Shown piece by piece: positions 3,058 through 27,841 of a stretch of 32,538 nt of DNA. The translations under genes and the position numbers were made by a program. This stretch comes from an uncultured Thermoplasmatales archaeon (GTDB taxonomy: Archaea; Thermoplasmatota; E2; DHVEG-1), in assembly GCA_964517155.1 (NCBI GenBank), contig CAZFAZ010000056.1:1-32538 (forward strand). Reading direction: 5' to 3'. Below the pieces are notes generated by a model. That model saw nothing but the letters and a program-made list of their open reading frames with translations, was not told where the DNA came from and ran no database searches. Within the stretch, counting starts at the first letter, position 1. Each line of letters begins with the position of its first letter.

Positions 3058-3732
3058 ATGGAAAAAATTGTAATAGCAATTGGCGGATCAGTGCTTTTTT
3101 CAGATCAAGTAGATAAGGATTTTTTTGAAAAATTAAATAATCTTTTTAAAAACTTATCAAAAAACTATAAAATTTATTTAGTAGTCGGTGGTGGAAAAAA
3201 AGCAAGACAGCTAATAAAAGAAGGAAGAAAACAAGGTCTTTCTGAAGAAAAACTAGATCTTATTGGTATAAATGTAACCCGTGAAAACGCAAAAGTTTTA
3301 TCAGGTATACTTGAAAATGCAAACAAGGTTATACCTGAATCAACAGATGAAGCAAAAAAAATGCTTGATAAAATAATTATTATGGGTGGTACAACACCGG
3401 GTCATAGCACAGACATGGCGGCAGCCGAGCTTGCTGAGAAGATTCATGCTTCAAAGTTTATTGTTGCAACTAATGTCGACGGTGTTTATGATAAAGATCC
3501 AAACAAGTATTTTGATGCAAAAAAATATGATGAAATTTCAATTGATGAAATGGTAAAAGAACATGGTACTAGTTGGGAGAGTGCTGGTAAAAACATGGTG
3601 ATTGATGGGCCTGCACTAGGAATTATACAAAAAGCAAAAATTCCGACATTTGTTTTAAATGGTAAAAACCTAGATGAACTTGAAAAAGCAATTACTAATC
3701 AGAAATTTAATGGTACAAAAATAAAAAATTAA
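3058..3732 (+). CDS. pyrH: UMP kinase
   Basis: IGGSV, VVGGG, GGTTPGHSTD and ATNVDGVYDKDP motifs of archaeal UMP kinase. Confidence 0.95.
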   Translation: MEKIVIAIGGSVLFSDQVDKDFFEKLNNLFKNLSKNYKIYLVVGGGKKARQLIKEGRKQGLSEEKLDLIGINVTRENAKVLSGILENANKVIPESTDEAKKMLDKIIIMGGTTPGHSTDMAAAELAEKIHASKFIVATNVDGVYDKDPNKYFDAKKYDEISIDEMVKEHGTSWESAGKNMVIDGPALGIIQKAKIPTFVLNGKNLDELEKAITNQKFNGTKIKN

Positions 3733-3759
3733 AAAAAAGAAAGAGAATTGATTTTTTTT

Positions 3760-4875
3760 TTAGCGAACAAAATCAATATCTACTTTTGCTTTTGCAACCA
3801 TAGGTTTCATTGGTTGTCTTTCAAGCATTGGTGTGCTTTTTGGACCAAGTATATTTGGTGATTGTACACCAGTCATAATTGCCATTACACGGCATTTGCC
3901 TTCAAACTCGGGTAGTACACGTGCACCAAGTATGACATTTGAGTAGCAGTCTAAATCTTCAGTTAATGATTTTGCTACATCTTGTACATATCTTAGGCTC
4001 ATGTTTGGTCCACCGGTAATATGAACTAATGCTCCAGTTGCACCTTTATAATCAACATTTAACAATGGATGATTAAGTGCTTCTTTTACAATTGTTTCTA
4101 CACCTGAATCTTCTTCTGCTTCACCCCAAAGCATAATAGAAAGTCCGCCTTGATCCATAATTGATTTCATATCTGCGTAGTCAAGATTTATTAATGACGG
4201 TACGGTAATTGTTTCAGATATTCCTTTTACTGTTTCAGAAATCATTTGATCCATAACTGAGAATGCTTGGTTTATTGGCAGATTTGGTACAAACTCTAAT
4301 AGCCTATTGTTGTCTAATACAACGGTACTATCTGCTTTTGTTCTAAGTTTGTCAAGTCCTTCATCTGCTTTTATAAGACGAGCACGCTCAACATTAAAGG
4401 GAGTGGAGACCATACAAGTTACAACTGCATTGTGTTTTTTTGCAATTTCTGCTACAACTGGTGCAGAACCGGTTCCAGTTCCACCACCCATGCCTGCAGT
4501 AATAAACACTAAATCTGAATCTTTTACAAGCTCTTCAATTTCATGTATGCTTTCACGAGCTGCTCTTTCTCCAACATCGGGAAAACCGCCTGCTCCGAGT
4601 CCACGTGTTAAACGACCACCAATTAAAATCTTGTGATCTGCTTCAACAAGATTCAGAGCCATTTTATCTGTGTTTATAGCTATTGTTTTTGCTCCTGTCA
4701 CTCCAAGTTTGTTTAACCTGGTTATCGTGTTTCCGCCGGCGCCACCGCATCCAACTATTGTGATTCTTGGTGTGCCAAACATTTCAGCGTCATCAAAATT
4801 TAATTTTGTTTCTTCTTCTTTTTTATTATTAATTGCGCTGGCTATAAAAGCCTCCATATTATTTTTTTCTCCCAT
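3760..4875 (-). CDS. ftsZ: Cell division protein FtsZ (FtsZ2-type context)
   Basis: [13 protein letters not shown], tubulin signature GMGGGTGTG and T7 loop INLDYAD. SD AGGAGG at 4891-4886. Lies downstream of an RHH gene, as in the cdrS-ftsZ2 arrangement. Confidence 0.97.
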
Positions 4876-4899
4876 CTATTACATTCCTCCTAAATTTTT

Positions 4900-4970
4900 T
4901 TGCTGGTAGTTTGAAGGACGCCCATCCCCACAGGCGCCCTTCTGTTAGGGGTGCATCCCATCCCCTCCAA
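4900..4970 (-). promoter_or_regulatory. Structured GC-rich intercistronic leader of ftsZ; putative sRNA target
   Basis: 10-bp hairpin GAAGGGCGCC/GGCGUCCUUC (4942-4913), fully paired only on the minus strand via G-U. Two GGGGAUGGG copies. The flanks match the 20160-20196 element. Confidence 0.75.
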
Positions 4971-4980
4971 TTTTTAACCA

Positions 4981-5208
4981 TTATTTTTTCATGTAAGGTT
5001 CAATGGACTCAACTGCAAGTTCCAATTCTTGGACCTTTTTGATTTTCTCCGCCTTATCAATTAAACTTTGGGCGTAGTTTTTAATAAAATCATTTACTGC
5101 ATGACGAATAACTTCAGAACGAGTAGCAAACTCCCCAGCTCTAACAAAAAGATCGATAGAGTGTATATCGTGCTGGGATAGTCTGATTGTTATCCGTTGC
5201 GTATCCAT
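4981..5208 (-). CDS. cdrS: Ribbon-helix-helix regulator, CdrS-like
   Basis: RITIRL...GEFATRSEVIRHAV CopG/RHH pattern, immediately upstream of ftsZ as in haloarchaeal cdrS-ftsZ2. SD GTGAGGAG. Confidence 0.85.
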   Translation of the reverse strand: MDTQRITIRLSQHDIHSIDLFVRAGEFATRSEVIRHAVNDFIKNYAQSLIDKAEKIKKVQELELAVESIEPYMKK

Positions 5209-5243
5209 TTTTTCTCCTCACATATTTTTTTTGTTGCCATACT

Positions 5244-5358
5244 GACATCATTCGTGTGTCAAACTCACGTACGTTGTGGGTCTAACAAACGACAAAAGAC
5301 ATCATTTGTCTGACAAACGTATAATTGAATGCGACGTTTAGTTTAAATAATTTTCGCT
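5244..5358 (-). promoter_or_regulatory. cdrS-ftsZ promoter (BRE-TATA) with repeated putative operator motifs
   Basis: Minus strand AGCGAAAA-TTATTTAAAC (5358-5341). Palindrome TTTGTC-T-GACAAA at 5305-5317. Direct repeats GTCT(A/G)ACAAACG at 5280 and 5308, and GACATCATT at 5244 and 5298. Confidence 0.6.
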
Positions 5359-5411
5359 ATTTTTGGCAGGTAAATATGCAGGCGTATATGTAGGATTTCT
5401 CCTTAAAAAAA

Positions 5412-6038
5412 TTACACCTGAACAATATGACCAAAAGCAACTGTTCCAGAAATTTTTTCAATTTTTACTTTAACAGATGTCCCTTTAATCGCGCCTGCTA
5501 CATAAATAATATATTTATCATGATAAGCGATGCCATCTCCTTTTTTACCAATGTCTTTAATGGTAAGTTCAAGTGTTGCACCTTCTTTAAGACTTTCTGA
5601 AGAAGGCGGACTTACAACCTTTTTCTTACGAGATTTAACTGAACGAAAAGCACCGCAAGCATCACAACGTATAAGCAGCTCACGTCCTTTTTTTACAAGA
5701 TGTGTATCAGGACGGCTACATTCAGAGCAAATAACAAACATATCAACATAATCTTTGATTTTATCATGGATGTTTTTAGTCGGAATCTTTCCTTGAAAAA
5801 CTGCTCTAGGGCCAACAAGTTCACCCGCTGTTCCAAGATTGCCTAATAAAAATTTTAAAACGATATCTGGTTCTCGATTTATTATATCTGTTATTTTATC
5901 AAAATTTTTTATAACGGTAGTGTTTCCTTCATAAAAAATATCTGCTTTTGGAAGTTTAAATCTATCCTCGGCTACTTCTTTTTTAGGAGTACTATCAATT
6001 ACTTTTTTAAGTAGGTTTTTGTAATCTAGATTAGTCAT
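5412..6038 (-). CDS. eif2b: Translation initiation factor aIF2 beta subunit with C-terminal TRAM domain
   Basis: EGNTTVIKNF, zinc ribbon CSECSRPDT...CDACGA, TRAM-like IGKKGDGIA tail. Confidence 0.93.
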   Translation of the reverse strand: MTNLDYKNLLKKVIDSTPKKEVAEDRFKLPKADIFYEGNTTVIKNFDKITDIINREPDIVLKFLLGNLGTAGELVGPRAVFQGKIPTKNIHDKIKDYVDMFVICSECSRPDTHLVKKGRELLIRCDACGAFRSVKSRKKKVVSPPSSESLKEGATLELTIKDIGKKGDGIAYHDKYIIYVAGAIKGTSVKVKIEKISGTVAFGHIVQV

Positions 6039-6117
6039 AATATAAAGGGCTAATACAATTCCTATCTAAAAATCTTTGGTTGAAAAAAGTAAAACCCCCT
6101 CTAAAGAATTTACTTTT

Positions 6118-6255
6118 TTAAAATTTTAGGATACTAGGTTTTACACGCATGCCCATTACAAGTTGTCCTTCTTTCATTGCTTGTTCTGCAACATCAGTGT
6201 TTTTAGTGAAAACCTTAGTACCTCCTTTTCTCCATGTCCAGATAAACTCTGACAT
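6118..6255 (-). CDS. Small hypothetical protein (45 aa), not in the ORF track
   Basis: MSEFIWTWRKGGTKVFTKNTDVAEQAMKEGQLVMGMRVKPSILKF*. Preceded by SD-like GGGGGAG and a TATA-like element near 6316-6326. Coding-like composition within an AT-rich gap. Confidence 0.7.
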   Translation of the reverse strand: MSEFIWTWRKGGTKVFTKNTDVAEQAMKEGQLVMGMRVKPSILKF

Positions 6256-6503
6256 TTTCTTTTATCTCCCCCAAACATGACTAACTGTTTGTAGCACTTG
6301 CAAATAAGGCTATTGTTTATATATTTTATTAAAAAAATGGCCTTATTGCTATAGCAATGTTTTTATAGAGTTATTATATGGAGAAAAAAGATTTGAATTA
6401 ATAAAATAATAATAAATCTTGGTAAAACAAAGATTATTAATATATAATTTAGTTACCGGGAAAACAAAACATAAAAAAGCAATAAAATAATGGTGAAAAT
6501 AAT

Positions 6504-6935
6504 ATGGTCGAATTCAAAGTAGTAGTAAATGATACAAAAGGCGGTAAATCATATCAGGTGCCAATTAGTGGTCATCATGCTAATTCTTTAATTGGTAAAA
6601 AAATAGGTGACGAAGTAGATGGTATATTTATTTCTTTACCTGGTTATAAATTACAGATAACTGGTGGTTCCGATAAAGATGGTTTTGCAATGAGAAATGA
6701 TCTGCCAGGCATGGTTCGTAGAAGACTTCTTTTAAGCGATGGTAAAGGATTTCATGAGATAGAAAAGGGTATGCGAAAGAAAAAATCAATGCGTGGTAAT
6801 ACTATAGGGCAAGATATTGTTCAGATAAATATGAAGGTTACAAAACATAGTTCAAAACCTATTGAATCTCTTTTGAAAAATGATGAGAAATCATCAGATG
6901 AGAAGAAAAAAGAGGAAGTTAAAGAGGATAAATAA
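6504..6935 (+). CDS. rps6e: 30S ribosomal protein S6e
   Basis: [36 protein letters not shown] and QINMKV motifs; followed by aIF2 gamma. Confidence 0.96.
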
Positions 6936-8176
6936 TGAGTCTTCCAAAACAACCTGAAGTAAATATTGGACTGATAGGCCATGTTGATCATGGTAAAACA
7001 ACTCTCACCCAGCGTCTTACAGGTAAATGGACTGATGAGCATTCAGAAGAATTAAAACGTGGTATCAGTATAAAACTTGGTTATGCAGATGCAGCTTTTT
7101 ATAAATGCCCAAAATGTGAAGAGCCGAAATGTTACGGTATAGCCCGTAAATGTCCAAGCTGTGGCAGCCCTACAGAGTTATTGCGCGTTGTATCTTTTGT
7201 TGATGCACCAGGGCATGAAACCCTTATGGCTATAATGCTTTCAGGTGCTGCAATTATGGATGGTGCAGTTCTTGTTATTGCTGCAAATGAGCCTTGTCCT
7301 CAACCTCAGACTCGTGAGCATTTAACTGCTTTAGATATTTCAGGTATTAAAAACATTGTTATTATTCAAAATAAAATAGATCTTGTAACAGAGAATAATG
7401 CTGTTAAAAACTATGAGCAGATTTTAAAATTTGTAAAAGGAACAGTTGCAGAGGATGCACCAATTATTCCAGTTAGTGCTCATCAGGATATAAACATCGA
7501 TGTTTTAATTCAAGCTTTAGAAAAAACTATTCCAACGCCGGTTCATGATAAAGACAAACCACCTTTAATGTATACAGCCCGCAGTTTTGATATAAATAAA
7601 CCAGGTGCTAGACCAAATGATCTTCGTGGCGGTGTGATAGGTGGATCGTTGATACAGGGTGTCTTTAAAAAAGGTGAAGAAATTGAAATCCGTCCCGGTC
7701 GTCATGTAGAAGTGGAAGGTAGGGCAAAAATTGAGCCTATTATTACTACGATTGATTCATTGTTTACAGCTGGCAAATCTGTTTCAGAGGCAACACCGGG
7801 GGGTCTTATTGCAATAGGCACATATCTTGATCCTGCTCGTACTAAATCTGATTCATATGCTGGAAAAGTCATTGGTAGGCCTAATGAATTGCCACCTGTG
7901 ATGGACAGCTTTAGTCTTTCTATTAATCTATTGAAACGTGTTGTTGGAACAGTTGATGAGAAAAATGTTGAACCTATCCGAACAAACGAGCCTTTAATGC
8001 TTACTATTGGTACTGCAACAACTGTTGGGATTGTAAAAGAGTTTCATGGTGAAATTGTTGGAGTTAAGCTTAAACTACCGGTTTGTGCTCAAGAATGTCA
8101 AAGAATAGCAATTAGTAGAAGGATTGATAGTCGATGGCATCTGATAGGTTACGGGGAAATCCAGCCTCAAAAATAG
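6935..8176 (+). CDS. eif2g: Translation initiation factor aIF2 gamma subunit
   Basis: [18 protein letters not shown], Zn ribbon, DAPGHE, QNKID and C-terminal RWHLIGYG. Confidence 0.98.
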
Positions 8177-8553
8177 TTGTTTTTGATAGTAGTGCAATAT
8201 TGATGCTTTTTGAGTATTCTATAAATTTAGAACAGGAGTTAACTAAGATTTTAGGTAGATATGAAATAGTTGTGCCCCTAAGGATTATTGAAGAACTTAA
8301 AGTTTTATCTGAAAAAGGAAAAGGTAAAAAGAAAAAACTTGCAAAACCTGCTCTTAAACTAGTTGAAAATTACAAGATAGTTAAGGATGCATCTGAAACC
8401 GCTGATGATGCGGTGCTTTCTATTGCAAAAAAATTAAATGGTATAGTTTTTTCAAATGATAAAGAACTTAAAATAAGAGCAAAAAAAGAAAAAATTAAAA
8501 CAATTTTTATGAGAAATAAGAATTATTTGATGATTAGTGAGGATTTTGTTTAG
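8134..8553 (+). CDS. PIN-domain ribonuclease (Fcf1/Utp24-like)
   Basis: VVFDSS, IIEEL, ADDAVL and SNDKEL acidic PIN motifs; usual position after aIF2 gamma. Start is uncertain because of the overlap. Confidence 0.85.
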
Positions 8554-8598
8554 AAAATTTTTATAATGATTGTTTTATACGGCTATTAAAAACCTATT

Positions 8599-8724
8599 GT
8601 CGGGGTGGCTCAGCTTGGTTAGAGCGCCTGACTCATAAGCAAAGCTATAAAGGGTTCGAAAAAAGTATTTGCCTTTTGGCGCTAAGATATCAGGAGGTCG
8701 CGGGCTCAAATCCCGCCCCCGACA
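8599..8724 (+). tRNA. tRNA-Met (CAT), elongator type, with a 51-nt intron at 37/38 (8638-8688)
   Basis: Acceptor GTCGGGG/CCCCGAC, anticodon stem CCTGA/TCAGG with CTCATA|intron|A, T arm GCGGG-CTCAAAT-CCCGC. The intron is self-complementary with BHB-like junctions. Confidence 0.92.
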
Positions 8725-8840
8725 CCTATTTAAATAATTTGTTTTAAAAAATACAAAAAAATGTATAATTTGAAACGATTTTATGTATTTTTTTCAGGCA
8801 GGATTTGAAGAATTAAAACTTTTTTTCCCATCGACATCTT

Positions 8841-9344
8841 TTATTCTATTAATCTTGTCTTGTTTTCTTTTTCCATGAGCCAAAAAGCAATAGGTCGTAC
8901 ATCTTCTGGTTTTGCATTTTTTGAATGAGTCCAAATATCAAGATCTTTTTTGCTTGAATCTATACAGCATTTTTCACAAGCAAAAAACTTGCTATGAATT
9001 ACAAGTCCTGAGAGATTTCTTTCAAAAATCATTCCTTTATGACATATATCACATACGCCAATTGAACCTGTTTCTTCTGATATATCTGTAGATAGATTTC
9101 CGATAGAATTTAAATCCTCATTTGGTGTTTTTTCAACTTCGCTTATTATCTGAAAAACATCTCCTGACGCAATATCATCAATGTTTAACTCTCCGGCAAC
9201 ATGACTAGTATTTTCCTGAATAATTTTTAATGGATCTGGTGTTTCTTGTTTTAAATCATCTGGAAAACTTTGTTTTTTTCTAAGCTCTTGTATATGTGTA
9301 AATACTTCTTTTAGCTCCTCATCCACAGCAATTTTTTTCCTCAT
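8841..9344 (-). CDS. Hypothetical protein with C-terminal putative zinc-binding domain
   Basis: 167-aa ORF with an acidic N-terminal part and CDIC...CEKC pairs. SD GGAG. Confidence 0.7.
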   Translation of the reverse strand: MRKKIAVDEELKEVFTHIQELRKKQSFPDDLKQETPDPLKIIQENTSHVAGELNIDDIASGDVFQIISEVEKTPNEDLNSIGNLSTDISEETGSIGVCDICHKGMIFERNLSGLVIHSKFFACEKCCIDSSKKDLDIWTHSKNAKPEDVRPIAFWLMEKENKTRLIE

Positions 9345-9478
9345 TTATACTTCTCCACGGCTATCCTATCAATTATATGAATAAAATTAAGGATATTTAA
9401 TTCCTGCGTATTATCAGGCTTTGCCCCAAAAGTCCCTTTTGACTCTAAAGTCGATAATTTGATCTTAAAGTAAAAAAA

Positions 9479-9634
9479 TTTGCAACGATTAAAAGAAAGT
9501 TTGGTGAAACAATAAAGTCTAAAAATCGTAATGCTCAGGAAAATGAGATTCTATGTAAAATTATTGATTATAATATTACAGTTCTTATTCATGCAATGAA
9601 GGAGTTTGGAATAAATCCAAGTTTTTGTGTTTAG
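9479..9634 (+). pseudogene. C-terminal remnant of a DDE transposase (IS4/IS5 superfamily)
   Basis: Startless frame FATIKRKFGETIKSKNRNAQENEILCKIIDYNITVLIHAMKEFGINPSFCV*. Resembles the segment after the catalytic Glu of IS5-type transposases. Confidence 0.82.
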
Positions 9635-9690
9635 ATTTTAAATAATTATTTAAAGAACAAAGTTATTTTACTTTGAAAGGACAGAAATAA

Positions 9691-10446
9691 ATGGAAAAAA
9701 TAAAAGTGTTGATAATTGGGATTACCTTATTTTTATCTATCACAATTTTTATTGGATGCACTGAAACAAATGAATCTGGTAATAATGTAGGATTAAATGA
9801 ATTACCTATTCCAATTATAACATTTCCCGAAGGAGCCCATCCTAGATGGTGGAATGATACCTTATTTGTCAATGCATTAGAGTCATATGATTTTGATGGT
9901 GATATAGTTGATTACAGATGGTTTTTTGAAACCAATATTGGATTAACACCTGATTCTTCAGAAACCAGAGCAGGTGATAGTACTAGCTATAAGATTCCTG
10001 AAGCAAATTTTATGGATGGATATGTAAATATTACTCTTGCAGTCACAGATAATAAGGGGGTTAGTTCATTTGCTTATTATGATATTCCACTGAGAAGGGG
10101 AAAAGGTGCAATTCACTTTGAACAGATTGACTCATCTACTGTCTTCAACATTACTTTTGTTCAAGGCGTTTCAAATGGAACCGGAGAAGGTTTTCTTGAT
10201 CTTTTTGAAAAAGAAATTTTTGTTGAAATTTATAAAAATGGATCATGGGATGGTCAACTTGGTTATTTCCCAGGCTATAAAGATGTAGATAACGATGGTA
10301 CAATATCCAAAGGCGATACTTTTGATATTTTCGATTCATTCTGGCCGAATTATTATGATGGATCAACTGTAAAAATTGATTTAATAGGTGGGAAAGGACA
10401 TAATCGAGAAACAATTGTAGGATCTTTAGAAGTTGAATTTGAATAA
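9691..10446 (+). CDS. Putative lipoprotein with PKD-like domain (transposon cargo)
   Basis: Signal peptide ending IFIGC (lipobox-like). PKD pattern SYDFDGDIVDYRW...ITLAVTDNKG. DxDxDG motif DVDNDGTISKGD. Confidence 0.8.
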   Translation: MEKIKVLIIGITLFLSITIFIGCTETNESGNNVGLNELPIPIITFPEGAHPRWWNDTLFVNALESYDFDGDIVDYRWFFETNIGLTPDSSETRAGDSTSYKIPEANFMDGYVNITLAVTDNKGVSSFAYYDIPLRRGKGAIHFEQIDSSTVFNITFVQGVSNGTGEGFLDLFEKEIFVEIYKNGSWDGQLGYFPGYKDVDNDGTISKGDTFDIFDSFWPNYYDGSTVKIDLIGGKGHNRETIVGSLEVEFE

Positions 10447-10548
10447 TTAAATATTTTGCACCTAAAATCAATACTCTGCACCTAAAGTCATTCATTTTTC
10501 ACACTTTAAGGGCAAAGCCGTATTATCATAAACAATTATAAGCAAAAA

Positions 10549-11565
10549 TTAGATGTTTAAGAGAGTTATCTTATCACTAAACATTGTAAGAACTGCAAAA
10601 GTTAATGCAAAAAAGATGTATTGGACATACATAATTGACCAAGCATGAACGTTTTCAAGTGTTTTGCTCTCCATGCCTTTAATCATAAGATAAAATATAA
10701 ACAGGCTGATAAACATAAAAAGACTAAGAGGCCAAAGATACCCCTTAATTAAATCAGCATGTATAAAAATAAAAATAAAAAGAAAGGGAAACAGCATAAA
10801 AGGTAAGCAAACAAGAGCTGTTTTTTTAACGCCAATTGTATTTATAAGAGTACGAGTGCCGGTTGCTCTATCTGCCTCTGAATCAGTTATATCTTTTGTC
10901 GCCATGCCACCTATTAGATAAGTCATAGCAATTCCTCCAATTATCCATGGTGTTGCATCGTTAAAAAGATTCTCAGAGCCAAAAACACTCCAGGATGCAA
11001 GAATTCCAAGTAATCCACGAGGTATAGCAATCCATATTTGATTAATAAACAGATATTTTTTCATTCTTGGAGGAAGAGAATAAGTAACTGTAAAAACAAT
11101 TATTAAAAATATAAAAAAACCAAACCAAAAATTGATAGTTACTGCGCGAAGAAGAGCAAAAAGATAAAGTATATATGCAAGGCTTTGAGCGCTATCTGCT
11201 CTTATAATCCCACGTGGTATTGGTCTGTATGGTTTTGATATTTTGTCTGCTTCTACATCTGCTGCTTGATTAAGTGAGTTTGAAGCAGCATTAACAAGTG
11301 CAATTGTAAACGCTGCTTGACCTATAGTAATCCACCAATACTGAGAAATTTCGTTTGGGTCAAGATTTCCTGTATTATAATTATAAATCAGGCTTGCAAC
11401 CATAATAGACATAGAAACAATAAATGGAGCTGCAAGAGTAAAAGGTCTGAAAAGATCTAAAGTGCCACGTGCTTGTTTTGAAAGAAACCTTGTTTTTGTA
11501 TAAGGCTCCTTCATTGTCCATTTACCGGGAACAATAACTTTAGGTCCTAATTCAGGTTTGTCCAT
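10549..11565 (-). CDS. UbiA-family prenyltransferase
   Basis: Multi-TM protein with NQAADVEADKISKPYRPIPRG and KDITDSEAD aspartate-rich motifs. Confidence 0.9.
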   Translation of the reverse strand: MDKPELGPKVIVPGKWTMKEPYTKTRFLSKQARGTLDLFRPFTLAAPFIVSMSIMVASLIYNYNTGNLDPNEISQYWWITIGQAAFTIALVNAASNSLNQAADVEADKISKPYRPIPRGIIRADSAQSLAYILYLFALLRAVTINFWFGFFIFLIIVFTVTYSLPPRMKKYLFINQIWIAIPRGLLGILASWSVFGSENLFNDATPWIIGGIAMTYLIGGMATKDITDSEADRATGTRTLINTIGVKKTALVCLPFMLFPFLFIFIFIHADLIKGYLWPLSLFMFISLFIFYLMIKGMESKTLENVHAWSIMYVQYIFFALTFAVLTMFSDKITLLNI

Positions 11566-11614
11566 TGTGGAATTAATATCATACCTACCTATTAAAATCT
11601 TTTTAAAAATATAC

Positions 11615-12997
11615 TTACAATAGCTCGGAGAGAATTCTGCCAGAGTTTAAAGCACAGTTAAAACCAATCCCAGGTGCTTTAACACAATCACCTACTAAAA
11701 ACAAGTTTTCAACAGGTGTTTTTATATCAGGTTTATTTTTATCAAGTGATTTTGCAACACCGTCAAGATGCCAAATCGCTGGATAAATTGCCCATTTAAG
11801 ATTTGATTTATAATCAGGTATTAAGTATTTTAAATTCTGATCCATTAAATCTTTAAGTTTTTTAAGAATTTTAGGATTTTTTGCTTCATCAGATGTACAG
11901 ATAATATATGATTGGATTAGAAAATCTTTTTTAGAACTAAGCCTAGATTTTTGTGAAGAAGACATAAAATCAATCATCCCTACAACATCGTTTCCTTCAA
12001 CACCGGCATCTCTTTCCAAGAAATGAAAAGTTTTACCAACTAAATTTGAAGGAATATCTTTTAATGCATAATATGCACAAAGGCTGCCCGTTCCAATTAA
12101 ACTTTTTATATAACTTACATAGTCACTTGGAAATTGTTTTTCATCAGCGATTTTAAAAAGGTCTTGAACTAATATATTTGAAATAACAAAATCACATAAA
12201 ATTTTTTCTTCTCCACATGCGACACCAATAGCTTTTTCCTCTTCAATAATTATTTTATCAACTTTTTTGCCAAATAAAATAGTTCCACCGTTTTTAATTA
12301 TTATATCTTTAAATTTTTTACAAATACTATCCATGCCACCAATAGGGTAACCTACTGGCTTAGAGCCTTTGTATAGATTGCGTTGAGCACGAATCATTTC
12401 GCCTGTTGAAATCTTATCAAGATTATTCATAGTAGTGATAGAGCGGGAAAAAACCTCAAGAATAAGTTTCATTTTTCCTTTACCATACTTTTTAATTGTA
12501 TCATCCATAGGAACACTATCTAAACGTTTTAGGGTTTTTTCACTTGCAAAAAGAAGTCTTAAGATATTCGGTAAAATTTTTAATTTATCCGCTCTTGAGA
12601 GAAATGGATAGTTATAACCATCCTCTTTTACAAATCCGACATAAGATTCTAGAAAATCAACATGCTCTTCAAAATCTGAAAGAACATTATTAACGTTAGA
12701 AAAAACCCCGCCACCTATTGCATGATATCCAAGATCTAGTCTGTATCCATTAAGCATTTTTTTAGAAAAAATAGTATCAATTGCAGGCTCCGAAAAAGCA
12801 ATATTCATGCTGAAGCGAGCAAGAATATTTCTGTATTCTTCGATACTTATATCTGATGCGTTAAACGTAAGTGCTCTGCCACCTATTAGTTGTTCTTTTT
12901 CAAAAATAGTTACTTTGTAACCTTTTTCTGAAAGAAGAGCACCCGCAGTTAAACCACCGATACCTGCACCTATTATCGCTATTTGCTTATTTTTCAT
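11615..12997 (-). CDS. FAD-dependent oxidoreductase, phytoene desaturase (CrtI/CrtD)-like family
   Basis: IIGAGIGGL...FEK...IGGRA Rossmann motif, YPIGG and C-terminal KTPVENLFLVGD. Confidence 0.85.
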   Translation of the reverse strand: MKNKQIAIIGAGIGGLTAGALLSEKGYKVTIFEKEQLIGGRALTFNASDISIEEYRNILARFSMNIAFSEPAIDTIFSKKMLNGYRLDLGYHAIGGGVFSNVNNVLSDFEEHVDFLESYVGFVKEDGYNYPFLSRADKLKILPNILRLLFASEKTLKRLDSVPMDDTIKKYGKGKMKLILEVFSRSITTMNNLDKISTGEMIRAQRNLYKGSKPVGYPIGGMDSICKKFKDIIIKNGGTILFGKKVDKIIIEEEKAIGVACGEEKILCDFVISNILVQDLFKIADEKQFPSDYVSYIKSLIGTGSLCAYYALKDIPSNLVGKTFHFLERDAGVEGNDVVGMIDFMSSSQKSRLSSKKDFLIQSYIICTSDEAKNPKILKKLKDLMDQNLKYLIPDYKSNLKWAIYPAIWHLDGVAKSLDKNKPDIKTPVENLFLVGDCVKAPGIGFNCALNSGRILSELL

Positions 12998-13033
12998 AAA
13001 TTGTCAACCTTGTTTACGTTATTAGTTTTTTTT

Positions 13034-14011
13034 CTAGTTGAATTTTAAAAACTCCATTATTTGTACATCGTCTATCTTTTCTTCATTATCATCAATTGAA
13101 ATAAATCCAGATGTTTGTACATGATAGCGCCAATAAGGCGATCTAAGAACGCTGCTGTAGTGTAAATCTTTTACTTTCATTTCTATATCTGCTTTTATAT
13201 GAGTTTGGTCTATCATCTCATCAATTTTTAATGTAAAATATGTTGGTGTTTTCTTTTTATTATCCAAGATATAGCTGTCTGGTTTGAAAATAATATTTTT
13301 AGGATTTATATTGTAAAAACCTTTTTGGTCTTTATTTACAATTGCAAGAAGATCCCATATATTGTCCTTTTTTACAACATTTGCCCAAACAATGTTATAA
13401 TTTTTGCTTCTTATTTTTCCCCAGTACCAACATTTACCATATGTAAGAGCTGTAAGAAAAGTGTAATTCCAGTTATGATCGTGATAACCAGTTCCTTCTA
13501 CTTTTATTTTTTTGCCATTGTATGTTATATCTCCTGTAACTTTTGCTTTTGGTAATGCAACAGTCCAGCTTTCTGCTTCTGTTTCAATTTTGAATCCTGT
13601 TACATCACCTATAAATTCAAGGTTTGCTTTGCAATCTTCAAGTGACATATCTATTTTATAAATCCATTTATTATCTTTTTTATATTTATCATAATCAAAT
13701 TCAATTACTGGTTTTTTGAATAGTTTTACAATAGGATATTCTTTTGATGTTTCAAAATTTTTAAATAAAAAACGTTTTTTCTTTTCAATTTCTAATTTAC
13801 CATTTTTATATAGTTCTAAAAAAGGTTGAATCATCCCAAGTTTTTTTCTTGAAAAAGTTCTACATCCAATATGAATGCTGTAGCTATTTGTAAAAATCGC
13901 ATCAAAGTACCACCATTCGGCAGCCACTTTTTTCTCTGAGCCATGAAATGCATCATCTTTTGGTGTTATTTCTACTGCAATGTTTTTTTTTATATTATGT
14001 GCTTTTTTCAT
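13034..14011 (-). CDS. CrtC/tocopherol-cyclase-like beta-barrel protein
   Basis: DDAFH, EWWYFDA and GTGYHDHNW motifs typical of the CrtC/AttH-like lipocalin-fold family. Confidence 0.72.
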   Translation of the reverse strand: MKKAHNIKKNIAVEITPKDDAFHGSEKKVAAEWWYFDAIFTNSYSIHIGCRTFSRKKLGMIQPFLELYKNGKLEIEKKKRFLFKNFETSKEYPIVKLFKKPVIEFDYDKYKKDNKWIYKIDMSLEDCKANLEFIGDVTGFKIETEAESWTVALPKAKVTGDITYNGKKIKVEGTGYHDHNWNYTFLTALTYGKCWYWGKIRSKNYNIVWANVVKKDNIWDLLAIVNKDQKGFYNINPKNIIFKPDSYILDNKKKTPTYFTLKIDEMIDQTHIKADIEMKVKDLHYSSVLRSPYWRYHVQTSGFISIDDNEEKIDDVQIMEFLKFN

Positions 14012-19734: not shown

Positions 19735-19872
19735 GTCAATATACGCCTCCCCTTAAGCTTTTTTGGGCAGTTCTGTAATCAACATACTGCATTTAATTGT
19801 TGTCATTTTTAAACATATATCTGTCGTTTTAAAGGGAATAATTTAAAAAGGATGATATATTACACCCCATTC

Positions 19873-20088
19873 ATGGCGCTTCCGTTAGATGTACTGGAAA
19901 AAGCAATGAATCAAAAACTTTCTTTATTGCTAAAAGATAGTAGAGTTATAGAAGGAAAATTAACTGGTTATGATGAATACATGAACATGGTTTTATCAGA
20001 TGTAGAAGAAACACTAGGTGAAACCAAACGTCGTCTTGGTACTGTTATTCTACGTGGAAATAATGTTGTAAGTATTTCTCTTTTATAA
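19873..20088 (+). CDS. Sm-like archaeal protein (Lsm/SmAP1)
   Basis: Sm1 GKLTGYDEYMNMVL and Sm2 ILRGNNVV. TTTAAAAA about 30 nt upstream supports a leaderless start at ATG 19873. Confidence 0.95.
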   Translation: MALPLDVLEKAMNQKLSLLLKDSRVIEGKLTGYDEYMNMVLSDVEETLGETKRRLGTVILRGNNVVSISLL

Positions 20089-20108
20089 TACAATTTTTAG
20101 CCTTTTTA

Positions 20109-20125
20109 GCGAAATGTATATATAT
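20109..20125 (+). promoter_or_regulatory. BRE-TATA promoter of candidate sRNA 1
   Basis: GCGAAAT-G-TATATATAT; canonical spacing predicts a start at about 20146-20148. Confidence 0.65.
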
Positions 20126-20147: not shown

Positions 20148-20223
20148 GGAAGGAATCGGGCTGGTAGTTTTTGTTAGAGTGCATCCCATCCCCTCCTAGT
20201 GAGGCCAGCCATCCTTCCTTTTT
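20148..20223 (+). ncRNA. Candidate trans-acting small RNA 1, antisense to the cdrS-ftsZ intercistronic leader
   Basis: GC-rich island with stems GGAAGGA/TCCTTCC and GGCTGG/CCAGCC, a small CCTC/GAGG hairpin and a 3' T-run. Blocks of 11, 6 and 18 nt are identical to the + strand of 4902-4968. Confidence 0.78.
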
Positions 20224-25846: not shown

Positions 25847-25857
25847 TTTTCTTTAAT

Positions 25858-25930
25858 AGTCCCGTAATGTAGCGGTCAATCATCCGGGATTCTGGATCCC
25901 GGTACCCCAGTTCGAATCTGGGCGGGACTA
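25858..25930 (+). tRNA. tRNA-Gln (CTG)
   Basis: Acceptor AGTCCCG/CGGGACT with A1-U72 typical of archaeal tRNA-Gln. Anticodon arm CGGGA-TTCTGGA-TCCCG, T arm CCCAG-TTCGAAT-CTGGG. Confidence 0.96.
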
Positions 25931-25936
25931 TTATTT

Positions 25937-26572: not shown

Positions 26573-27841
26573 TTATGTTGGTAAGATTATATCTTCGTAA
26601 ATAGAACGCAGGTAATCAAATTTTTCCTCAAAAATTTCTGCTTGTTTTTGAATTATTTTTTCTGCTTGATTTATATCCATATCTTTTACATCTTTTGCAT
26701 AGCTTACAAAACGGCCAATCCATAGGGTTTTTAAAGTATCTAAAAGCAGGTATTTATCTGCATCAGTTCTAACATTTTTCCATGATGCAGCATAGTTGTA
26801 TACAACTTCTGTCCATAATTCACAATCAAATTTTTGTTTTTGGTTTGCAACTTTTTCAATGTCATTTACTATGCTTTCTGGCAAGAATTGTTTCATCGTG
26901 TTTATTGATGATTTAAACTCTGTTTCAAAAGATTTCTGCATATTTGGTATGCTGATTTTTACAGGAATTGGTTTTTGACTAAAACATTCTCTGTAGTATT
27001 TTGTTTTAAATCTTGGCCGATGGGATTTCCATTCATCTTCATAATATTCTGCTAGTTTAAACATACTGCCAGTTACTTTTCTAAACATCGGGATTAAAAA
27101 TTTTTCTGGCTCTAAATAACGAGTAGTTGATTCATGTATTTTTAAAGAAAATAATCCTTCTTTTACATAGAAGCATTCTGCTGCTGCAACTGTTAATATA
27201 AATATATCTATTCCAAAATCTGGTGGAAATAGTGGATGTGCTCTAAGTCTCTCGTAAAGATTTTTTGATATAGCGTATTCACCTGCAATAGGCTGGCGTA
27301 TATCAATTCCATATAATGCACGTGTGAAAGGATAGACTAAGTTGTTTGTTATTACTCCATCGTTTTTATCACGTATATAGTATGGCACGGTAAGATCAGC
27401 TCTTCCATAAACAATTGCATTTGCCATCATTGGAAGCCAGCTAGGTTTAATGCTTAACAAATCTCCATCCATTAAAACAACGCATTTAGCATCGCATTCA
27501 TGTGCGATTTCAAAAATAGTCATAACTCCGGCGCCTTTTCCTGCAGGAATTATATCTTTTGTTACTATTTTTTTAATAGATGAGTATGGTTGAAAAAGTT
27601 CAATCGCTTCATCTGTTTTATCTAAGGAATCTGCAGTACTTATAACAATTGCTTTTTTGTAATCTGGAAAATATCTATAAAGTCCTTCGTTTATGACGTT
27701 TAGAACATTTAAAATAGTTGTTTCTACGTCTTTGCAGAGTACGCCGACTAATATATCAGTTTCTTTTGCTTCTTTGCATTTTTTTATAACATCTGAACTT
27801 AGTTTCAGCTCTTTATTCCACTCTTGATTCATCCCATCCAC
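26573..27841 (-). CDS. GT-A glycosyltransferase, glucosylglycerate/mannosylglycerate synthase-like
   Basis: GKGAG, DGD, DGVITNNLVYP, IRQPIAGEY and FGIDI motifs. Confidence 0.75.
   Translation of the reverse strand: MDGMNQEWNKELKLSSDVIKKCKEAKETDILVGVLCKDVETTILNVLNVINEGLYRYFPDYKKAIVISTADSLDKTDEAIELFQPYSSIKKIVTKDIIPAGKGAGVMTIFEIAHECDAKCVVLMDGDLLSIKPSWLPMMANAIVYGRADLTVPYYIRDKNDGVITNNLVYPFTRALYGIDIRQPIAGEYAISKNLYERLRAHPLFPPDFGIDIFILTVAAAECFYVKEGLFSLKIHESTTRYLEPEKFLIPMFRKVTGSMFKLAEYYEDEWKSHRPRFKTKYYRECFSQKPIPVKISIPNMQKSFETEFKSSINTMKQFLPESIVNDIEKVANQKQKFDCELWTEVVYNYAASWKNVRTDADKYLLLDTLKTLWIGRFVSYAKDVKDMDINQAEKIIQKQAEIFEEKFDYLRSIYEDIILPT

Follow-up and report, generated by a model that had tools for sequence, protein, structure and literature searches.

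The cdrS and ftsZ genes of an uncultured Thermoplasmatales archaeon are separated by a 105-nt leader that is probably the docking site of a small RNA (sRNA) encoded 15 kb away. Both loci lie on contig CAZFAZ010000056.1, whose 32,538 nt are referred to here as the window; the genome it belongs to (G000) comprises 1.585 Mb in 91 contigs, with 31.8% G+C. Leader and sRNA can pair over about 35 nt, and the comparison of genomes gives good support to the view that their complementarity has been preserved throughout an entire archaeal class. We consider it highly probable that this pairing is functional. That the sRNA docks on the cdrS-ftsZ leader, controlling ftsZ separately from cdrS, is a reading we hold with fair confidence, and the sequences point to RNA-based control of FtsZ-dependent division. 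Genomes of the class set (197) are assigned below to families labelled f1 to f10; the family of the source comprises 108 genomes. The features on which the argument turns are the following (+, forward strand; -, reverse strand; ORF, open reading frame; SD, Shine-Dalgarno sequence; MFE, minimum free energy):

3760..4875 (-): ftsZ, 371 aa, the cdrS-linked paralogue (ORF; Pfam Tubulin 1.4e-41, FtsZ_C 2e-25)
4876..4980 (-): cdrS-ftsZ intercistronic leader, the 105-nt gap (ORF bounds, fold)
4886..4891 (-): ftsZ SD, AGGAGG, 11 nt past site C
4902..4912 (-): site C, AAACUACCAGC, 11 nt complementary to sRNA 20160-20170, with ACUACC invariant (RNAcofold, alignment)
4913..4942 (-): hairpin B, 13-bp stem with variable loop, which juts out between both pairing sites (MFE fold)
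4921..4929 (-): second GGGGAUGGG, in the loop and 3' arm of hairpin B, lineage-specific (motif search)
4943..4948 (-): CUAACA, a 6-nt extension pairing with sRNA 20172-20177, in some genera only (RNAcofold)
4947..4966 (-): hairpin A, 5-bp stem (4966-4962 with 4951-4947) and 10-nt loop AUGGGAUGCA showing the site A core (MFE fold)
4951..4968 (-): site A, 18 nt, perfect complement of sRNA 20179-20196, with invariant core GGGAUGGGAUGCA (complementarity, alignment columns)
20148..20223 (+): sRNA gene, some 71 nt (20148-20218) followed by a T5 run, with a terminal stem GGAAGGA/UCCUUCC closing a large open loop

Complementarity between the leader and the small RNA

The original prediction for this gap connected it to the sRNA through nine complementary nucleotides. 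The motif concerned, GGGGAUGGG, does occur twice on the mRNA strand (4965-4957 and 4929-4921), and its complement lies at 20185-20193, all three exactly where they had been placed; three matches in the window compare with 0.02 expected, a number that none of 100 shuffles reaches, and the total across the 1.585-Mb genome is seven. The nine-nucleotide complementarity is real and was understated: pairing extends over about 35 nt, in blocks of 18 (4968-4951 with 20179-20196), 6 (4948-4943 with 20172-20177) and 11 (4912-4902 with 20160-20170). RNAcofold arranges these blocks into a three-way junction in which hairpin B is kept (-86.6 kcal/mol, with a free-energy difference, ddG, of -28.7 after opening both RNAs), and three other lineages fold to the same junction architecture (ddG -19.2 to -34.0). 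In a seeded duplex scan of the whole genome, the leader was the best non-self site, that is, the best outside the two sRNA genes themselves, with -55.0 and -51.0 kcal/mol against -41.7 kcal/mol for the next.

The two loci change together. At the site A core, 12-20 nt are complementary within each lineage's own leader-sRNA pair; the lineage's own sRNA is the best or tied best partner for 9 of 11 lineage leaders, and none of 20000 permutations reaches the observed sum. Within f1, an A or C at the 5' end of site C tracks a U or G in the sRNA: leaders with AAACUACC go with GUAGUUU in 35 genomes and leaders with CAACUACC go with GUAGUUG in 17, this junction pair being concordant in 52 of 60 genomes. 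The leaders of f8 and f9 are without hairpin B, with complementarity kept or extended. Those of f8 contain a 19-23-nt perfect complement reaching into an f8-specific 5' stem of the sRNA; in f9, the G172 and G176 leaders are perfect complements of their own sRNAs over 33 and 30 nt, with linkers that differ, and the G170 leader is complementary to its own sRNA over 16 + 11 nt. An f6 leader combines 14 nt of complementarity with a different hairpin. An A-to-G change in the leader of one f2 genome, G108, would pair as G.U with the sRNA sequence of other f2 genomes, used for this comparison (the pattern search gave none in G108). These observations suggest that pairing has been held through evolution by correlated changes, with events that are few and partly non-independent.

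The leader as a conserved structure

The gap has a GC-rich core, as originally described: its GC fraction is 0.44-0.48, against 0.26-0.38 in the neighbouring sequence and 0.318 in the genome. The two hairpins that had been drawn on the mRNA strand are also found in place, hairpins A and B together forming the MFE fold of the gap (-35.3 kcal/mol, z score -3.41; 0 of 200 shuffles equally stable). Leader DNA was matched in 106 of the 108 family genomes, the weakest of those matches reaching the sRNA gene only. Aligned over 68 family leaders, three blocks show no variation: GGGAUGGGAUGCA at the core of site A, GAAGG at the foot of hairpin B and ACUACC in site C; the GAAGG/CCUUC base as a whole is invariant or nearly so, and neither length nor sequence is fixed in the hairpin B loop. 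The CUAACA extension is missing from the g19 and g40 leaders. Orthologous gaps retain the hairpins and the site A motif; their loss from such gaps is what the original prediction had named as a refutation.

Substitutions in the stems are largely compensatory. An alignment of 77 leaders (f1, f2, f3 and one f5 genome), fitted to the structure and so biased towards it, has 98.7% of cells paired and compensatory changes at 8 of 14 pairs; a plain MAFFT alignment has 95.9% and 6 of 14, and in neither case do any of 500 shuffles match. Taken over the 77 leaders, pairing reaches 99.4% in hairpin B, where 7 of 10 modelled pairs have compensatory changes, and 97.0% in the four modelled stem pairs of hairpin A, the outer of which is G-C in 54 leaders and A-U in 17. 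By this comparative evidence, hairpin B is under RNA-level selection. The exact pattern of site A, hairpin and site C was found in 87 of 107 f1 genomes and in 2 of 2 f3 genomes, and a covariance model adds all 8 of the f2 genomes and a single f5 genome, with the leader again 5' of ftsZ. Outside f1, this model matched in 28 of 58 searched genomes, 11 of the matches being true ftsZ leaders; the other 17 were discarded, one being unrelated and 16 falling on the sRNA gene in antisense. Two further identities were considered for parts of the gap and rejected. Hairpin B is followed by AAACUACCAG, with no U-run, which does not fit a terminator or attenuator; and a paralogous sRNA on the opposite strand would have no 5' half of the terminal stem, and no promoter elements are seen by eye.

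Conservation of this kind could in principle belong to a self-contained cis element, such as a protein-binding structure, a stabiliser or a spacer, whose likeness to the sRNA is left over from an inverted duplication and serves no purpose today. Both hairpins are indeed conserved in their own right, the antisense of the leader resembles the sRNA with a hairpin inserted, and both hairpin B and the sRNA terminal stem hold GAAGG/CCUUC. A relic should decay, yet here the complementary blocks are invariant columns; they follow lineage-specific sRNA changes over at least four families, and the f8 and f9 leaders keep or lengthen them in spite of having no hairpin B. We give this explanation very little credence.

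The second GGGGAUGGG, at the apex of hairpin B, had been proposed as another seed, and this part of the prediction does not hold across the family: of 68 leaders, 6 contain the 9-mer and 21 (11 of 35 genera) the 8-mer GGGAUGGG. It may be an extra contact in its sub-group, outside the core design; the role of second site belongs to AACUACCAG(C), on the 3' side of hairpin B. Entry of the sRNA via the hairpin A loop is plausible, the invariant 10-nt loop being complementary to the open loop of the sRNA.

The original prediction also allowed for control through translation of an upstream mini-ORF starting in site A. In the window, an SD-like GGAGGGG does precede AUG-CAC-CCC-UAA (4956-4945), and a 23-codon frame (4961-4890) does end in the UAG of the ftsZ SD region; moreover, two AUGs are invariant in site A, and several real genes of the genome start inside the GAUGGGAUG motif. 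None of this extends to the reading frames themselves. Across the 68 leaders the two frames run over 5-40 and 3-38 codons, with no frame, length or peptide conserved, a stop at the SD closes the first frame in 15 of 68, which is within chance, and GGAGGGG stands ahead of site A in just 20 of 68. Hardly any chance remains, in our view, for this mode of control. What stands of the post-transcriptional switch first proposed is a conserved structured leader whose single-stranded parts are complementary to a co-varying sRNA; the upstream-ORF route is what falls away.

Predicted transcription of the small RNA and of cdrS-ftsZ

The genes and promoters that frame the pairing partners are listed here (BRE, B recognition element; RHH, ribbon-helix-helix):

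4981..5208 (-): cdrS-like RHH gene, 75 aa, first of the pair (ORF; Pfam RHH_8 6.2e-07, RHH_1 1.6e-05)
5340..5358 (-): BRE/TATA promoter of cdrS, predicted start near 5318 (promoter matrix score 13.3)
20108..20125 (+): BRE/TATA promoter of the sRNA, conserved in 81 distinct sRNA loci

The sRNA promoter has the same layout in the 81 distinct loci, with a BRE GCGAAAA at -39..-32, a TATA element CATATATA at -31..-23, T at -1 and G at +1, and the predicted start is the first G of the terminal stem. That stem rests on single folds and sequence reading: RNAalifold on a MAFFT alignment of 57 sRNAs, whose 3' ends are poorly aligned, recovered the inner stem only. A second copy in the same genome (C32:25307-25384; locus L002 1501-1579) is 86% identical with a shorter linker, carries its own BRE/TATA-like sequence and a T7 run, and lies 3' of a response-regulator receiver gene and 5' of an 84-aa ORF. 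With its own promoter, its T-run and a second copy among other genes, the sRNA is predicted to form an independent transcription unit. A role as cis leader of the downstream hutU-like gene is unlikely, given the sRNA's own T-run, the 130-200 nt before that gene and the copies elsewhere. The main copy lies between a gene for an Sm-like (LSm) protein (19852-20088, +) and a urocanase-like gene (from about 20286, +), and 27 of 28 evaluable family loci share this order. The adjoining gene encodes an RNA chaperone, and this proximity suggests a functional link between the Sm-like protein and the sRNA.

sRNA DNA is found in 107 of the 108 family genomes, at 83-100% identity and with one to five matches per genome. 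A pattern search detected the motif in 132 of the 197 class genomes: f1 105/107, f2 4/8, f3 1/2, f4 1/1, f5 3/4, f7 2/2, f8 13/13, f10 1/1, f9 1/25 and f6 0/32. A looser search showed that f9 and f6 possess the sRNA as well, diverged in its linker or 5' part. In seven f9 loci (L392, L393, L397, L399, L406, L416 and L417) the seed 11-mer is also present in a multi-copy repeat, often at contig ends and possibly an insertion sequence. Among the matches of the sRNA pattern listed from public records (80 of 118) are uncultured Thermoplasmata/Thermoplasmatota sediment archaea, some of whose isolate names we take to be those of Marine Benthic Group D; five bacterial records among the same 80 appear to be protein-coding sequence and were judged chance. 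No Rfam family, DicF included, matches the sRNA or the leader, in a gathering scan of the window or in an E-value scan of the sRNA loci and leader; the leader's lone E-value match, to a sobemovirus frameshift element, is at chance level (19.7 bits against a gathering threshold of 55, E 3.3). The gathering scan of the window returned two tRNAs only. One Rfam tRNA match of 126 nt (8599-8724, +), which could hold an intron, is unlisted by ARAGORN, and a tRNA-Gln reported by ARAGORN (25857-25931, +) is unlisted in the Rfam gathering scan.

Upstream of ftsZ, gene order is equally stable: an RHH gene lies directly 5' of the FtsZ gene on the same strand in 28 of 30 family loci, the remaining 2 ending at a contig edge, and the same layout is seen in other families (ftsZ upstream regions of 20 further genomes inspected). 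We place this ftsZ provisionally in the FtsZ2 branch, by synteny alone; most of the other-family genomes searched have a second, more distant FtsZ gene. A promoter with a score of at least 5, and with its start 94-118 nt before the start codon, precedes cdrS in 26 of 28 family loci. The original prediction had named a transcription start for ftsZ downstream of the structured element as a contrary outcome. In a scan with a matrix built from 81 sRNA promoters, which could overlook weak or atypical promoters, no promoter above background was found in the cdrS-ftsZ gaps, where the median score of 0.6 equals that of the background (sRNA promoters, 13.8). A conserved promoter 5' of cdrS and none in the gap fit a single cdrS-ftsZ transcript without proving it, and co-transcription of the two genes is predicted from this promoter placement. 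Within the predicted 5' untranslated region of cdrS, of about 105 nt, are two similar repeats (TGACA..., ...AUGAUGUCA type; 5315-5298 and 5262-5242, -); they have look-alikes in other genera and might act as an operator bound by the RHH protein itself.

The promoter scan also bears on an explanation at the DNA level, in which a protein recognises the 14-20 bp shared by the gap, as an operator of an internal ftsZ promoter, and by the sRNA gene, complementarity being a by-product. A/T-rich, TATA-like sequence is often found immediately 5' of site A, a weakly matching predicted start would fall inside or just past site A (scores of at most 8.1), and the GGGG...CCCC arms of hairpin A can equally be read as an inverted repeat. 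Against this, promoter scores in the gap are those of the genome background, and sites A and C are 2-18 nt apart in the sRNA gene against 35-50 nt in the leader, the extra leader part being a hairpin under RNA-level compensatory selection. In addition, the variable linker of f9 co-varies between the two loci, which a protein site would not require, and the change in the G108 leader would keep pairing only as G.U with the f2 sRNA (that of other f2 genomes). Recognition at the DNA level therefore seems to us very unlikely.

Proposed consequences for ftsZ expression and probable wider targets

We propose that the leader would serve as a dedicated docking site on the cdrS-ftsZ transcript for the trans-encoded sRNA (20148-20218). 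Part of the open loop of the sRNA would pair with site A, whose core is the loop of hairpin A; a second part of the loop, together with one strand of the sRNA inner stem, would pair with site C just 5' of the ftsZ SD; and the stable hairpin B would protrude between the two sites to form the three-way junction. Docking would alter ftsZ expression and leave cdrS untouched, a discoordinate control of the operon. The likeliest effect would be a reduced translation of ftsZ, through a bulky duplex on or beside the region where ribosomes land, or through an intercistronic cleavage mark. Given pairing, we see an even balance between repression on one side and, on the other, activation and processing, which share the remainder.

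Pairing might be real and yet serve RNA processing or activation instead of a translation block. In the first form, the duplex directs an intercistronic cleavage that parts the cdrS message from an ftsZ message starting at a protective hairpin B; in the second, docking frees the ftsZ ribosome-binding site. The sRNA leaves the SD itself unpaired, with an unpaired probability of 0.61-1.00 in the complex in four lineages, and predicted SD accessibility rises with the sRNA in three of the four (0.81 to 0.91, 0.38 to 0.61 and 0.42 to 1.00). A very stable conserved hairpin also lies just 5' of the ribosome-binding site. Processing would have parallels in haloarchaea, Haloferax having a monocistronic cdrS RNA along with RNAs that are perhaps cleaved from the bicistronic mRNA (PMC8406309), and Halobacterium having processing sites at ftsZ2 and a translation uncoupled from mRNA level (PMC8303175), as described in the relevant passages of these papers. 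However, no nuclease was linked to the site in this analysis, and cleavage is hypothetical for the lineage. The geometry found in f2 favours a block, the site C helix abutting the SD with a spacing of 0 in 8 of 8 genomes (the median is 7 nt in f1, with a range of 3-21, and the spacing is 4-6 in f3), and the position of the seed over the start codon of the EarA-like genes described below is a repressive geometry as well. A role in processing or activation in place of a translation block appears unlikely.

Several points weigh against docking as a means of repressing ftsZ, or against the evidence for pairing. With the SD left unpaired by the sRNA, the modelled structure alone predicts no repression, and activation is possible. 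In the window, 27 nt lie between the end of site C and the ftsZ AUG; bacterial sRNAs block 30S binding over a limited range, and 27 nt is at or beyond that range. Full pairing would require the sRNA's own stems to be opened, and long helices in a stem-closed loop would be strained. As to the evidence from evolution, 8 of 60 genomes are discordant at the f1 junction pair, some of them examined through a second-type sRNA copy only, and the A:U to C:G switch within f1 may be one evolutionary event, because the same genera share another sRNA change. The long identity in f9 could stem from gene conversion between the loci. The figures of 98.7% and 8 pairs come from the structure-fitted alignment; unfitted, they are 95.9% and 6 pairs. 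Finally, sRNA and cdrS-ftsZ co-transcript are known here from sequence alone, from which we infer that both RNAs are made and meet, as well as the sign of the effect. A search of public sequencing runs for window 3700-13600 listed no RNA run containing it, an outcome that does not bear on expression either way.

The sRNA probably has targets beyond ftsZ. Two genes for EarA-like proteins (PF07381; C5:2339-2665 and C51:16982-17311) start inside GAUGGGAUGCA, the complement of the sRNA seed, and this sequence is kept at the start codon in 27 of 30 family loci (L425-L454), the other 3 being one base off. The EarA-like genes are thus likely further targets on the basis of sequence context, and a seed lying over their start codons implies more than one target, which would explain the near invariance of the sRNA. 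The genome contains 28 copies of the motif GAUGGGAUG, where base composition predicts 4.4, and the motif overlaps the start codons of three DDE transposase genes, of a TSP3-repeat protein gene and of a 419-aa ORF in the window (27832..26576, -) without Pfam match:

C10:29707, C10:31027, C86:5370 and C26:15075 (-): GAUGGGAUG sites (motif scan)

Elsewhere in the genome, two intergenic-looking stretches (C67:4327-4340 and C72:15450-15488, both -) match the sRNA target sequence over 10-14 nt, and each has another partial copy close by. In its widest form, the proposal would be that of a class-wide riboregulator of division: a near-invariant sRNA of about 71 nt, as a rule encoded just 3' of the Sm-like protein gene, using one seed on a regulon of the cdrS-linked ftsZ (through the co-evolving bipartite docking site), EarA-like transcription factors (seed over the start codon) and transposases. 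We advance this extension tentatively, as falling a little short of an even chance.

A close functional parallel is DicF, a trans-encoded, prophage-borne and Hfq-dependent sRNA that pairs at the ftsZ ribosome-binding site. Its action on ftsZ mRNA is documented in Escherichia coli (PMC5069750). The candidate described here is alike in being a trans sRNA that would pair with the 5' region of the ftsZ message, linking division to a riboregulator; it differs in being a core gene of an archaeal class with its own BRE/TATA promoter, and in pairing in two blocks around a conserved hairpin within an intercistronic leader. In bacteria, similar positions are used inside polycistronic messages. RyhB on iscRSUA and Spot 42 on galETKM act within the mRNA, altering the downstream gene and leaving the upstream one unchanged. 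They share with our candidate an intercistronic docking and a stable structure parting the fates of two message parts; they are bacterial and based on Hfq and RNase E, whereas the outcome here is only deduced. StfZ, an antisense RNA of E. coli at the ftsA-ftsZ junction, is likewise aimed just upstream of ftsZ, but the passages that describe it have it made in cis, from the opposite strand of the same locus (PMC9628754), in contrast to a partner encoded 15 kb away.

Among archaea, sRNA162 of Methanosarcina mazei is a trans-acting sRNA that also targets a bicistronic mRNA, in that case for a transcription factor (PMC3510493). Target, sequence and lineage differ, and the passages concerned include neither a three-way junction nor a cell-division gene; sRNA162 is experimentally supported, whereas our pair was recognised through nucleotide sequences only. 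In haloarchaea, cdrS and ftsZ2 form the same pair in the same order (PMC7439475) and are co-transcribed, with an additional monocistronic cdrS RNA (PMC7439475, PMC8406309), and a post-transcriptional control at the ftsZ2 5' end has been suspected (PMC8303175). Regulation there is ascribed to the proteins CdrS and CdrL (PMC7439475, PMC8406309), and the relevant passages of these papers describe neither a trans sRNA nor a conserved intercistronic docking element. Full-text literature searches found no paper on an archaeal sRNA acting on ftsZ, nor on an sRNA of this lineage.

The timing of FtsZ-based division in archaea is largely open, and the known regulators of cdrS-ftsZ2 are proteins. The analysis provides an RNA-RNA pair defined to the nucleotide from sequence, with natural compensatory variants in several families and a probable wider regulon. 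If the proposal is true, a conserved trans sRNA with a named target in an essential pathway would be added to the few archaeal sRNAs whose targets are known, and its recognition geometry, two blocks bridged by a hairpin on the target side, would be unusual. In its class-wide form, the sRNA would represent an RNA-level switch acting on the FtsZ division machinery of archaea, the first of its kind, and would have evolved independently of DicF as its functional analogue.

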